Shown here: piece after piece, positions 41,620-42,955 of the stretch
Position numbering within the stretch: position 1 is the stretch's first letter
Layout of the letters: each line of letters opens with the position of its first letter
NCBI RefSeq assembly: GCF_044324785.1
Contig: NZ_CP172127.1
DNA from: Escherichia coli
GTDB lineage: Bacteria > Pseudomonadota > Gammaproteobacteria > Enterobacterales > Enterobacteriaceae
Strand: one strand, 5' to 3'
Length of the DNA stretch: 64,000 nt
Notes under the pieces: model-generated
The model's input: the letters and a program-made list of their open reading frames with translations, nothing else
Told to the model about the DNA's origin: nothing
The model's database searches: none
Position numbers and translations under genes: made by a program

Positions 41620-42567
41620 TCAAGCATTCAGGATGGATAACGCTAAGCTCCTAAACCTGGAGTAAGCCTCATCCCATGTGATCTTTCGCTCTCCATACAC
41701 CATTGGCGAAACAAACTGCTGATAGCGCATCTGGTAGAGAGGATTGTTCGCCAGCTCATCCAGTCCCATTTTTAGCTCATCAACTGGAGACGCGCAAAAC
41801 TGCGGGTACTGGTTGCCGTAACGTTGAATGTCCTGCTCAATAGTTTGTTGAACAAAATCAACGAGCAGACTCATATCAACATGACTCGTCTCAACAATAC
41901 AGTTTGTATCGTAGATATGACGTACCAGCGATGCATCATCAAATCGCTCAACATCTCGCACAACTGCCGCAGTACGGCGTAACATCGCCACCAGCTTTTC
42001 AGCCTGTGTGCTAATGATAGTTGCGCATGGAAACGCTGAAACAATAGCCGCTTTTCCCGTGATCCCTGTTACCAGTGAATGAATATCCCGTAATTCAGAA
42101 GGCTCCAGTAACTTCGCTTCCATCAATTCCAGCCGGATAAAAGGACGCAAACAAGGTGCCTGCACCACTCGCTGTGGATAACGAACAGGTATGTCATTAT
42201 AACGATATTCATCCCGCGTCACTTTTGGGTAATCATCATCAAAATTGAACACACCCGATGAAGCTATTGCACTGGAAACTGCCTGAACAATTTCTTTACG
42301 GGTATTTTTTCGCTGAGTGCGGGAAAGTGCCTGAAATGCATCCTTAGGCACCAGTTTGATATCCACATCTTCCGACATGCGATTAAGTGCGACACCTGAT
42401 TTTGCCAGAGCGGTTCCTCCGGCAAACACCAATTGATGAGTATCGAACACCAGAGGTTTAAGCAATTGCAAAAGCTCAACGATATAGTGATCTTTTTCCA
42501 CAATTGCGACAGACTCAATACCAAGCGCGTCAGCCACTTCAGAAAAAAGAGTGGTTAAATCATCCAT
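41620..42567 (-). CDS. AbiEii/AbiGii-family nucleotidyltransferase (type IV toxin-antitoxin toxin-like)
   Basis: 315 aa; Pol-beta-type NTase motif (VFAGGTALAKSG...SEDVDIKL); start overlaps the stop of the upstream small ORF. Confidence 0.7.
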   Translation of the reverse strand: MDDLTTLFSEVADALGIESVAIVEKDHYIVELLQLLKPLVFDTHQLVFAGGTALAKSGVALNRMSEDVDIKLVPKDAFQALSRTQRKNTRKEIVQAVSSAIASSGVFNFDDDYPKVTRDEYRYNDIPVRYPQRVVQAPCLRPFIRLELMEAKLLEPSELRDIHSLVTGITGKAAIVSAFPCATIISTQAEKLVAMLRRTAAVVRDVERFDDASLVRHIYDTNCIVETSHVDMSLLVDFVQQTIEQDIQRYGNQYPQFCASPVDELKMGLDELANNPLYQMRYQQFVSPMVYGERKITWDEAYSRFRSLALSILNA

Positions 42568-42955
42568 TTAATCTGCTGTTCCCTACAGATAATACGCGTT
42601 TAAAACGCCGGGGGGTTTTTATCTCGGGTGAAGCTGGGATCTGCGTAGAAGTACCGCTATTGTATGCCTGCGTTGCGCCAGCAAAACGATAGCGTACTTT
42701 CAGGCGTTCCAGCGTTTCGACAATCACCGCTGAAGAGCCTCCGGGAGCCGCTGGCATTACCTTGCCTGTAATACCGTTCCGCCGTGCTTTGGTATACACG
42801 CCATAACCAACCTTCAACAGTTGCCCTTCCCTGACAAGATCGCGCAATACCCGACCAACCTGATCGTAGCCTGCAATATCTTTAAAGTCGTCACGAGTGA
42901 ATACGTAACGTTTAGAACGTTTCAGTCGTGACTGAATGCGTGCTTTTATCGTCAT
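42560..42955 (-). CDS. AbiEi-like antitoxin/transcriptional regulator partner
   Basis: 131 aa from ATG 42955, preceded by a perfect AGGAGG 5 nt upstream; the track ORF to 43024 would abut the repeat and lacks an RBS. Confidence 0.6.
   Translation of the reverse strand: MTIKARIQSRLKRSKRYVFTRDDFKDIAGYDQVGRVLRDLVREGQLLKVGYGVYTKARRNGITGKVMPAAPGGSSAVIVETLERLKVRYRFAGATQAYNSGTSTQIPASPEIKTPRRFKRVLSVGNSRLNG

Follow-up and report, generated by a model that had tools for sequence, protein, structure and literature searches.

The window analysed here, a stretch of 64,000 nucleotides from Escherichia coli, carries two overlapping genes on its minus strand that encode a short winged-helix protein and a Pol-beta-type nucleotidyltransferase, referred to below as antitoxin and toxin (Table 1). 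A first-pass annotation made from the sequence alone had described a 315-aa reading frame behind a small one that starts at 42955 with a perfect AGGAGG, the two overlapping by 8 bp. These coordinates, the Shine-Dalgarno sequence and the overlap were all confirmed. Within the overlap, ATGGATGA, the ATG of the toxin gene lies at 42567 and the TGA of the antitoxin gene at 42562-42560. An overlap of the same length is present in Pantoea, Salmonella, Photorhabdus and the CFT073-type pair of E. coli, that of Shewanella sp. ANA-3 measures 4 bp, and the antitoxin-first order along with a start/stop overlap is kept in at least eight genera. Judged from the sequence, such an arrangement probably implies translational coupling of the two genes.

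Two starts had to be considered for the antitoxin. Read from its first ATG the open reading frame spans 42560-43024 and yields 154 aa, while the ATG at 42955 yields 131 aa. The shorter form is the one given in RefSeq (396-nt CDS) and is common to homologues from Salmonella, Pantoea, Photorhabdus and others, in which the DNA 5' of the gene has diverged except for an operator-like repeat. GGAGG or GAGG is kept at the place of its Shine-Dalgarno sequence in homologous loci. We rejected the 154-aa start (ATG 43024), which is kept in close relatives only, has no Shine-Dalgarno sequence and would entail translation across conserved operator repeats.

Table 1 Features of the toxin-antitoxin locus and its surroundings, in coordinates of the window.
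Feature	Position	Strand	Remarks
Toxin gene, AbiEii/DUF1814 (SanaT-like) Pol-beta-type nucleotidyltransferase	41620..42567	-	315 aa
Antitoxin gene, DUF6088 / short AbiEi-type (SanaA-like) winged-helix protein	42560..42955	-	131 aa
Toxin/antitoxin overlap	42560..42567	-	8 bp; ATGGATGA
Shine-Dalgarno sequence AGGAGG	42961..42966	-	5 nt ahead of the antitoxin ATG at 42955
Operator-like direct repeat 2, ATGTCGTATTTTTGCTA	42985..43001	-	23 bp from repeat 1
Operator-like direct repeat 1, ATGTCGTATGTTTGCTA	43008..43024	-	begins right after the DUF4942 stop codon
DUF4942 gene, copy B	43025..43858	-	Pfam DUF4942 1.2e-70; co-oriented upstream neighbour of the antitoxin gene
Direct-repeat partner: DUF4942 copy A (34100-34933) plus 30 bp	34070..34953	-	operator remnant 34070-34099
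leuX (tRNA-Leu) 3' fragment, att remnant	41424..41441	-	18 nt; boundary between hsd island and AbiE island
Distal end of the mobile AbiE module	41588..41619	-	similarity to the ECO8855 copy ends at 41588

The toxin belongs to the DUF1814 nucleotidyltransferases (PF08843, COG2253). It matched the Pfam AbiEii model PF08843 with an E-value of 4.7e-30 (105.7 bits at a cut-off of 22.5 bits) and the PADLOC AbiEii model PDLC02297 with an E-value of 8.4e-128 (424 bits), residues 1-313 aligning with positions 1-306 of the 307-position profile. No NCBIfam model was met by the toxin, and PHROGs returned an unnamed family only. Catalytic motifs I-IV of AbiE toxins have been defined as hG[GS]-x15-DhD with a motif II arginine, KLxAxxxR and +DxxD (PMC3985639). 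In the toxin from the window, motifs I and II read AGG(50-51)...R63-M-S65-E-D67-V-D69 with 15 residues between GG and DVD, the motif III region reads K191-LVAMLR-R198, and motif IV reads R216-H-I-Y-D220, where a histidine replaces the first aspartate of the published +DxxD; the ANA-3 toxin contains the same RHIYD variant. Compared with the residues mutagenised in Streptococcus agalactiae AbiEii (PMC3985639), G50 and G51 correspond to G49 and G50, R63, D67 and D69 are numbered alike, K191...R198 corresponds to K173...R180, and R216-H-x-x-D220 to motif IV. The catalytic residues of the GS...[DE]x[DE] pattern, on which the first-pass annotation had wanted the assignment to stand or fall, are all present, and G50, G51, R63, S65, D67, D69, K191, R198, R216, H217 and D220 are invariant in 24 homologues. 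Ser65, two residues ahead of the motif II DxD, is placed as expected of a type VII phosphoacceptor and coincides with the phosphoacceptors T65 of AbiEii, S78 of MenT3 and S65 of SanaT (preprint 10.64898/2026.01.19.700257).

The antitoxin matched Pfam DUF6088 (E-value 3.3e-7; 30.7 bits at a cut-off of 25 bits) and AbiEi_4 (E-value 1.5e-5), so that the search for AbiEi_4 and AbiEii proposed at the outset found both families. Over its full length it matched the 131-position PADLOC AbiEi profile PDLC02229 (E-value 3.1e-53), while it scored 15.2 bits against the NCBIfam TAA_AbiEi equivalog, far under the 150-bit cut-off. The Pfam AbiEii match of the toxin and the PADLOC matches of both proteins lie far beyond chance. 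The AF2 model of the antitoxin (pLDDT 95) resembled Rv2827c (1ZEL; Foldseek probability 0.99 over 127 columns) and AbiEi (6Y8Q; probability 0.97 over 120 columns), with E-values of about 0.04. The link to canonical AbiEi rests on the borderline Pfam match together with the PADLOC models and the similarity in fold. For the toxin model (pLDDT 86), the top Foldseek matches were MenT4 (6Y56; E-value 3e-7, TM about 0.6) and MenT3/TglT (6J7x). Sequence searches of the PDB gave no match for the toxin and noise only for the antitoxin; with profiles, the antitoxin found nothing and the toxin at best MenT4 at an E-value of 0.12, with motifs I and II correctly aligned. Because these searches were weak or empty, the ties to solved structures rest on predicted folds.

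With 131 aa the antitoxin had appeared short for an AbiEi and had been suspected to be only the N-terminal winged-helix part. This suspicion did not hold. The length of 131 aa is kept across Enterobacterales (more than 100 clusters), and representatives of the DUF6088-type family are mostly 130-150 aa long. The winged helix is followed by a compact, conserved C-terminal part of about 70 aa, shorter than that of AbiEi, in which an STQIP loop (residues 103-107) is invariant. The antitoxin is thus complete and belongs to a conserved subfamily of short proteins (DUF6088/SanaA-like); it is not a truncated AbiEi.

Just upstream of the antitoxin gene lie two 17-bp direct repeats; the 17-mer occurs three times in the window versus 0.00 times expected. 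The pattern TGYCGTAT-N15-TGYCGTAT was found once per locus and always just 5' of the antitoxin gene in nine loci including that of Shewanella ANA-3, and repeats of the TGYCGTAT type are also present in Acinetobacter, Pseudoalteromonas and Aeromonas. At the position of repeat 2, homologous loci carry TGCTATGAT (Pantoea), TGCTATATT (Pseudoalteromonas) and TGCTATCAT (CFT073 type). The repeats persist over the range spanned by E. coli, Shewanella and Acinetobacter, although synonymous substitutions are already close to or at saturation (dS is about 1 against the Salmonella copy and incomputable for more distant homologues). The two conserved repeats are probably an autoregulatory operator, as their position and conservation suggest. 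Together with the adjoining CTCT, the 3' end of repeat 2 (TGCTA) forms an extended -10-like element, TGnTACTCT (42989-42981). A scan for consensus sigma-70 promoters 5' of the antitoxin gene detected no -35/-10 pair on the minus strand, and the placement of a putative promoter at this element, overlapping repeat 2, is our own reading. Rfam (E-values up to 1) and ARAGORN reported nothing in or around the module.

The pair lies convergently behind hsdR (38084-41200, plus strand), whose end is 419 bp from the toxin stop codon, just as had been noted. It had also been described as sitting inside a repeat-bracketed cassette together with the type IC restriction-modification (R-M) system. The bracket is real: an ungapped direct repeat of 884 bp with 95.5% identity (34070-34953 and 42995-43878) comprises two DUF4942 genes and 30 bp downstream of each. 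Beside copy A, the operator remnant reads ATGTCGTATGTTTGCTT ... ATGTCGT and gives way to unrelated sequence and McrB. Collinearity of the window with E. coli 1303 extends to 41441; the matching position there, 16485, falls inside an annotated tRNA-Leu (16468-16552). ARAGORN found no intact tRNA in the window. In blastn, 41588-43878 aligns with 8001-10290 of the ECO8855 locus, where the copy sits in a different context, and the hsdR/AbiEii junction occurs in none of the 5,426 complete E. coli genomes searched. The att remnant and comparative synteny led us to reject the pair as part of a type IC cassette. The sequence places the pair on a different, later-inserted island than the hsd genes, with the att remnant between them. 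The first-pass annotation had predicted shared movement or loss with the type IC system. Loss may occur by recombination between the DUF4942 repeats, but joint movement does not fit two islands with a leuX att remnant in between. The module forms the final cargo of a CP4-type leuX island, at its distal (att) end, and lies beside the type IC hsdR only as a consequence of islands inserting in tandem. The vicinity is rich in defence genes (McrBC, two type I R-M systems and a SIR2-like protein), and the island also holds a second toxin-antitoxin pair, CbtA/CbeA.

Genes 99% identical to those of the pair are contained in 133 of 5,426 E. coli genomes, where RefSeq lists them as 'AbiEii/AbiGii toxin family' and 'DUF6088 family'. 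In other genomes the pair occurs alone or together with an upstream DUF4942 gene, its usual companion in Enterobacteriaceae islands. The order DUF4942-antitoxin-toxin is shared by E9, ECO8855 and Salmonella; in E9 the pair adjoins a pseudo-integrase, and in ECO8855 it flanks hsd on the opposite side, replacing McrBC. Measured against the Salmonella copy, dN/dS amounts to 0.05 for the antitoxin and 0.09 for the toxin, which indicates purifying selection.

SanaTA of Shewanella sp. ANA-3 was reportedly characterised as an anti-T7 system in 2013 by Sberro et al. (Mol Cell 50:136). The ANA-3 plasmid carries a pair (NC_008573 21935-23283; 136 aa and 313 aa) that is likewise an antitoxin-first bicistron with an overlap. 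Its antitoxin is 45% identical to that of the window over 124 residues (BLASTP E-value 1e-37), and its toxin is 44% identical end to end (E-value 1e-98), motif II (RMSEDVDIKL, with Ser65) and motif IV (LVRHIYD) being identical. The same TGYCGTAT-N15-TGYCGTAT repeats lie upstream. The ANA-3 pair is plasmid-borne and followed directly by hsdMSR in the same orientation, whereas the window pair is chromosomal and convergent with an unrelated hsdR. We consider the ANA-3 pair to be almost certainly SanaTA, going by the organism, the 136-aa length, S65 and the DefenseFinder labels quoted in PMC12409351; the SanaTA locus tags had no match in text searches or among the members of ten representative antitoxin clusters, which were 130-137 aa long and in seven cases 136 aa. 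Homology to the ANA-3 pair and a DUF6088 antitoxin of about 130-140 aa lead us to assign the window pair to the SanaTA subgroup on sequence grounds. Experimental data, as described in PMC3985639 and preprint 10.64898/2026.01.19.700257, exist for SanaTA and concern its toxicity, a proposed dependence on Lon and the protection it gives against T7 lacking gene 4.5, while the window pair is known from its sequence.

The AbiE systems of S. agalactiae and Lactococcus lactis (PMC3985639; 10.64898/2026.01.19.700257) have the same operon order, a DUF1814 toxin and motifs I-IV with nearly equal numbering. S. agalactiae AbiEii and the window toxin both carry a hydroxyl residue at the phosphoacceptor position 65, AbiEi and the window antitoxin both begin with a winged helix of the AbiEi_4 type, and both promoter regions contain repeats spaced by about 23 bp, which are direct in the window but described as inverted in S. 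agalactiae (PMC3985639). Further differences concern the antitoxin, which at 131 aa versus about 195 aa for AbiEi is without the distal part of the AbiEi C-terminal domain, and motif IV, which is RHxxD in the window toxin and +DxxD in AbiEii. The MenAT systems of Mycobacterium tuberculosis provide the best structural matches of the toxin model (MenT3/TglT, Rv1045; MenT4, Rv2826c, partnered by Rv2827c) and, with Rv2827c (1ZEL), a good one for the antitoxin model. MenT3, whose serine is phosphorylated, has the S-x-D-x-D motif in common with the window toxin. However, sequence identity to MenAT is only 14-21%, and the antitoxins of the MenAT systems are far longer (Rv2827c has 293 aa). A closer relative, c3681-c3682 of E. 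coli CFT073, belongs to the same subfamily, consists of 131 and 315 aa with an 8-bp overlap and is 75% (antitoxin) and 60% (toxin) identical. This pair, too, follows CbeA/CbtA where a CP4-type island has its distal end, yet the island and its insertion site differ, lying next to kpsF of the group 2 capsule locus rather than at leuX, and in CFT073-type pairs the first operator repeat is degenerate. Deletion mutants of c3681-c3682 have been reported to be altered in phage susceptibility (PMC12488582).

Taken together, we are confident that the locus holds an intact bicistronic AbiE-family toxin-antitoxin module of the short-antitoxin (DUF6088/SanaA-like) subgroup typified by SanaTA, and this confidence extends to the proposed mechanism outlined here and to the placement at the island end. 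The AbiE-type organisation originally proposed is borne out by HMMs, predicted folds, and gene order and overlap conserved in other genera. Toxicity, neutralisation, phosphorylation, tRNA targeting and phage defence are ascribed to the pair by analogy with homologues that are at most 45% identical (60-75% for the lightly studied CFT073 pair). The N-terminal winged helix of the antitoxin would bind the two repeats, as modelled on S. agalactiae AbiEi, and since the promoter-proximal repeat overlaps the -10-like element, binding would repress the operon. Both proteins would probably be produced in a coupled manner through the conserved overlap. Free toxin would probably add pyrimidine nucleotides to tRNA 3' ends and halt translation, a target suggested by MenT1, MenT3, MenT4 and S. 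agalactiae AbiEii in combination with the fold and motifs found here. By analogy, the antitoxin would most likely bind the toxin and induce its auto-phosphorylation at Ser65, probably making contact through its conserved C-terminal part, for which the invariant STQIP loop is a candidate. Loss of the antitoxin, in SanaTA thought to be due to degradation by Lon during phage shut-off, would free the toxin, and the outcome may be abortive infection or post-segregational stabilisation of the carrier island.

Alternatively, the pair could mainly be an addiction or stabilisation module that acts by post-segregational growth arrest and not a phage-defence system, with the same biochemistry serving another selected role. 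We regard this as a serious though less probable possibility. It would fit the observation that the pair always either closes off a CP4-type island at the distal end, as its last cargo, or resides on conjugative or mobilizable plasmids, and the presence of CbtA/CbeA on the island, which is typical stabilisation cargo. Furthermore, AbiE stabilises plasmids (PMC3985639) and, according to an abstract (PMC11062541), an ICE in S. suis. A phage-defence role is not assured either, because E. coli carrying S. agalactiae AbiE was not protected from any of 32 coliphages (10.64898/2026.01.19.700257). On the other hand, the CFT073 homologue does change phage susceptibility and the surroundings of the pair are saturated with defence genes. 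Note also that the defence and stabilisation roles are compatible with each other.

PrrC is embedded in the type IC EcoprrI locus, and a PrrC-like, tRNA-directed back-up that fires when a phage disables restriction would explain the place of the pair beside hsdR. Comparable neighbourhoods do exist: in Shewanella ANA-3 and on S. decolorationis plasmids, co-oriented hsdM-S-R genes follow 7 nt after the homologous pair, on pVPH2 of V. parahaemolyticus the pair is followed by hsdM-hsdS-DUF6933-hsdR, an Aeromonas plasmid has a WYL-MTase-S set some 3 kb further downstream, and adjacency to type I/IC systems recurs in islands of Enterobacteriaceae, where in ECO8855 as in the window a type IC hsd operon adjoins the pair. 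If such wiring to type I R-M were true, the window would present a loosened version of the partnership between SanaTA-type pairs and hsd. We nevertheless consider it improbable. In the window, the genes are convergent rather than operonic and separated by the att remnant, the junction did not recur among the E. coli genomes, and none of the copies in E9, the CFT073 type, Salmonella, Photorhabdus, Acinetobacter and Pseudoalteromonas has a type I system beside it. Type I R-M is found in defence islands more often than any other system, and co-occurrence is thus expected from clustering alone. Moreover, SanaTA has been summarised as active when cloned in E. coli, with R-M genes left unmentioned (10.64898/2026.01.19.700257). 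Slightly less credible still is a decaying or inactive remnant in which a non-functional toxin accompanies an antitoxin kept as regulator or anti-addiction factor. Decay does occur in relatives, as seen from a frameshifted toxin in one E. coli locus (L008), from two Yersinia loci (L015 and L016) where DUF4942 is followed by an orphan antitoxin without toxin DNA, and from short AbiEii 3' remnants on many E. coli plasmids. Here, however, both open reading frames are full length and 99% identical to widespread clusters, the toxin has every family-invariant catalytic residue, the Shine-Dalgarno sequence, overlap and candidate operator are intact, and dN/dS is low.

The preferred reading of an intact AbiE-family module with a short antitoxin concerns a system that is already known: it is annotated in RefSeq, PADLOC AbiE models match it end to end, and SanaTA has been the founding member since 2013. 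As a discovery the pair has small weight, all the more as a 60-75% identical E. coli paralogue was already studied in 2025, and the useful yield consists of corrections and small additions. One of the latter is the conserved direct-repeat operator candidate, which is open to testing. The locus illustrates how, where CP4-type islands are stacked at leuX, defence cargo is exchanged at the island ends 3' of DUF4942. With its genuinely short antitoxin, the pair lends itself as a handy minimal model, native to E. coli, for the antitoxin-induced auto-phosphorylation that has recently been proposed.

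The gene pair at 41620-42955 is a member of the known and already annotated AbiE family and falls into its SanaTA subgroup. The layout reported in the first-pass annotation, a toxin ORF and a small upstream ORF that starts at 42955 behind an AGGAGG and overlaps it by 8 bp, was found again in the ORF list and the sequence, as was the convergent orientation with hsdR. A longer reading of the antitoxin gene would yield 154 aa from an ATG at 43024, directly past the upstream DUF4942 stop codon. The RefSeq annotation takes the 396-nt CDS, antitoxin homologues of other genera begin at a methionine equivalent to ATG 42955, and the DNA 5' of these homologues is unrelated, with the exception of the repeat element described below.

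Features of the toxin-antitoxin pair and its surroundings (window coordinates)
Feature	Position	Strand	Remarks
DUF4942 copy A	34100-34933	-	
Operator repeat remnant	34070-34099	-	one full and one partial repeat, ATGTCGTATGTTTGCTT ... ATGTCGT
hsdR	38084-41200	+	convergent with toxin gene, 419 bp between
leuX fragment with terminator-like hairpin	41390-41441	-	
leuX tRNA-Leu 3' fragment	41424-41441	-	18 nt; between hsdR and AbiEii; 1303 collinearity and ARAGORN
Toxin ORF	41620-42567	-	315 aa; six-frame ORF list and sequence
Toxin/antitoxin gene overlap	8 bp	-	ATGGATGA
Antitoxin ORF	42560-42955	-	131 aa from internal ATG 42955; six-frame ORF list and sequence
AGGAGG	42966-42961	-	5-nt spacer to ATG 42955
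Direct repeat 2 (antitoxin-proximal)	43001-42985	-	ATGTCGTATTTTTGCTA
Direct repeat 1	43024-43008	-	ATGTCGTATGTTTGCTA
DUF4942 copy B	43025-43858	-	
CbtA-family toxin	43973-44314	-	second toxin-antitoxin pair, upstream
YeeU/CbeA antitoxin	44345-44680	-	second toxin-antitoxin pair, upstream
RadC	44680-45153	-	
DUF932	45183-46001	-	
Second type I hsdR	52060-55476		N-terminal DUF4145
Second type I hsdM	55540-57174		
Second type I hsdS	57171-58349		
228-aa ORF	58371-59057		after second type I set; no Pfam match
SIR2-like protein	59098-62889		1263 aa; strand opposite to second type I set

The toxin matches Pfam AbiEii/DUF1814 (4.7e-30) and, over its whole length, the PADLOC AbiEii model (8.4e-128). 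For its AlphaFold model, calculated with 24 homologues as input (pLDDT 86, pTM 0.85), MenT4 (6Y56, E 3e-7) and MenT3/TglT (6J7x) are the sole significant PDB neighbours. The residues essential in Streptococcus agalactiae AbiEii, G49/G50, R63, D67, D69, K173, R180 and D192 (Dy et al., PMC3985639), have counterparts in G50/G51, R63, D67, D69, K191, R198 and the R216-H-I-Y-D220 pentad, all of them invariant across the family alignment; the GS...DxD catalytic residues, whose absence would have refuted the first-pass reading, are therefore retained. Ser65, two residues ahead of the DxD, is likewise invariant and lines up with the phosphoacceptor site, T65 in AbiEii, S78 in MenT3 and S65 in SanaT. 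The family matches, fold, motifs and architecture thus support the original proposal of an AbiE-type toxin-antitoxin pair.

The antitoxin exceeds the gathering score of Pfam DUF6088 (3.3e-7), lies barely over the threshold of the AbiEi_4 winged-helix model and matches the PADLOC AbiEi model, which has exactly 131 positions, from end to end (3.1e-53). It did not reach the NCBIfam AbiEi equivalog, and a sequence search of the PDB returned no match. The short protein had been suspected to be just the N-terminal winged-helix part of an AbiEi, and this did not hold. Nearly all of the best 120 antitoxin clusters, from Escherichia, Salmonella, Pantoea, Photorhabdus, Xenorhabdus, Dickeya, Pectobacterium, Serratia and Yersinia, measure 131 aa, and representatives of the wider family at 50% identity are mostly 130-150 aa long. 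In the AlphaFold model (pLDDT 95) a winged helix (about residues 1-60) precedes a compact alpha/beta part (60-131), which in a 48-sequence alignment holds the most conserved positions outside the winged helix; in its STQIP loop Q105 is invariant and P107 nearly so. A truncated AbiEi was rejected on account of the conserved length, the confidently modelled C-terminal fold and this loop, and alignment and model together argue for a complete short form. The same situation has been described for SanaA, a protein of 136 aa in which distal elements of the AbiEi C-terminus are missing and the loop required for antitoxicity is kept (2026 AbiE preprint, 10.64898/2026.01.19.700257).

The closest characterised relative is probably a pair on a plasmid of Shewanella sp. 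ANA-3 (NC_008573, 21935-23283). Its DUF6088 protein has 136 aa and its AbiEii toxin 313 aa, and full-length identity to the respective window proteins is 45% and 44%. Motif II (RMSEDVDIKL, with Ser65) and LVRHIYD are identical in both toxins. We infer that this is the SanaTA pair of Sberro et al. (2013), because organism, 136-aa length and S65 agree with SanaA/SanaT of the 2026 preprint, and because DefenseFinder-derived labels 'SanaA' and 'SanaT' are attached to proteins named 'S-adenosylhomocysteine hydrolase' and 'pyrophosphatase' (PMC12409351), legacy names that also occur among homologues of the window pair. These names persist in many entries for the DUF6088 antitoxin and the toxin, respectively, and have no backing from our Pfam, NCBIfam or fold results. 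According to reports, SanaTA works as a toxin-antitoxin pair and guards E. coli against T7 without gene 4.5, and its activation is thought to run via Lon degradation of the antitoxin (10.64898/2026.01.19.700257). A paralogous E. coli pair (75% identity for the antitoxin, 60% for the toxin) adjoins kpsF/E/D. Since the CFT073 pair c3681-c3682, which influences susceptibility to some phages (PMC12488582), has the same position, we take the two to be of the same type.

The 69 bp between the DUF4942 stop codon and the antitoxin ATG hold two 17-bp direct repeats, 23 bp apart from start to start. With up to two mismatches, the 17-mer occurs three times in the window versus 0.00 expected. The pattern TGYCGTAT-N15-TGYCGTAT is present exactly once in each of nine fetched loci, including Pantoea, Salmonella and Shewanella plasmids, always just upstream of the antitoxin gene, and near-identical repeats were also found in Acinetobacter, Pseudoalteromonas, Aeromonas and Vibrio. 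The repeat-bearing loci share no related flanking DNA; in comparison with the Salmonella copy, synonymous sites come close to saturation (dS ~1), more distant copies being too divergent for an estimate. The proximal repeat ends with TGCTA, followed by CTCT in the window and by TGAT, TATT or TCAT in homologues, so that repeat end and next bases form an extended -10-like TGnTAnnnT; a consensus promoter scan called no promoter at the repeats. AbiEi acts at paired repeats of its promoter (PMC3985639), and by analogy the conserved repeats are a putative operator at which antitoxin binding would occlude the promoter. The repeat remnant directly past the stop codon of DUF4942 copy A is followed by unrelated DNA and then McrB/McrC. 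In E. coli ECO8855 the AbiE module occupies the spot downstream of this other DUF4942 copy in place of McrBC, its similarity to the window having its limits at 41588 and 43024, and the remnant looks like a scar of defence-cargo exchange downstream of DUF4942.

Window positions 27001-41441 are collinear with the leuX region of E. coli 1303, which carries nanS, HNH, a phosphorothioate-dependent restriction enzyme, McrC, McrB, DUF4942 and hsdM-S-R in this order. Because this collinearity ends 18 nt into the annotated tRNA-Leu and ARAGORN found no intact tRNA in any part of the 64-kb window, the stretch 41424-41441 represents an att remnant. Its location between hsdR and AbiEii, with no intact tRNA in the window, indicates that at least two islands are stacked at leuX, the intact tRNA and integrase lying past the window end. 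Collinearity with strain E9 starts at 41368 and takes in AbiEii, DUF6088, DUF4942, CbtA, YeeU/CbeA, RadC, DUF932 and what follows; the set from CbtA to DUF932 is standard CP4-type island backbone. The pair thus closes, as its last cargo, the distal end of a second island, of CP4 type, inserted into leuX beside an older hsd-carrying island. By collinearity with annotated 1303, the older island encodes at 28659-33742 an HNH endonuclease, a phosphorothioated-DNA-binding restriction endonuclease and McrC/McrB homologues. The pair's own island bears more defence-type genes at 52060-62889.

The earlier view that the pair moves or is lost together with the type IC system is not supported, although joint loss could occur. 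An E. coli hsdR annotated as 'EcoR124 family' (type IC) matches the 3' part of the window hsdR with 95.6% identity. The two DUF4942 genes constitute a direct repeat of 884 bp (95.5% identity), and if they recombined, hsdMSR, the att remnant and the pair could be deleted in one step. Evidence of joint movement was not found: none of 5,426 complete E. coli genomes contains the hsdR/AbiEii junction (40900-41900) at ≥80% coverage, while the pair is found in 133 of them, and its regular partner is DUF4942 or nothing. On Shewanella plasmids (L017, 21935-30536; L018) a co-oriented hsdM-S-R begins 7 nt past the pair; on Vibrio parahaemolyticus pVPH2 (L020, 6595-14844) hsdM, hsdS, DUF6933 and hsdR follow it, the hsd genes being absent from the PLSDB table and recovered by ORF and Pfam search; and on an Aeromonas plasmid (L019, 6598-14924) a WYL-MTase-S set lies ~3 kb downstream. 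Other copies lack a type I R-M neighbour. Such proximity may reflect an operonic link or ordinary defence-island clustering; a PrrC-like functional link to type I R-M is considered improbable.

In comparison with the Salmonella copy, dN/dS amounts to 0.05 (antitoxin) and 0.09 (toxin), and for each gene there are large clusters with 99% identity to it; by these measures the module looks functional. Conservation is stronger in the antitoxin than in the toxin throughout (amino-acid identity of 91% vs 82%, 81% vs 63% and 75% vs 60% in loci L011, L004 and L007), the opposite of the pattern often seen in toxin-antitoxin pairs. One E. coli locus carries a frameshifted toxin (L008, 5389-6332). Two Yersinia loci (L015 and L016, 4001-4417) keep the DUF6088 antitoxin after DUF4942 and contain no toxin-like DNA at all; such orphan antitoxins may act in anti-addiction or in regulation. 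Many E. coli plasmids (H67-H74) have an unannotated stretch coding for toxin residues 255-315 only, at 95% identity; these stretches are remnants of the module's 3' end.

Taken together, the initial observation is confirmed and its core interpretation supported. Statements on mechanism that go further than the family assignment, fold, motifs, architecture and repeat conservation are extrapolated from homologues. To a known family the analysis makes minor additions: a conserved direct-repeat putative operator, a short antitoxin that appears complete, and a corrected island structure.
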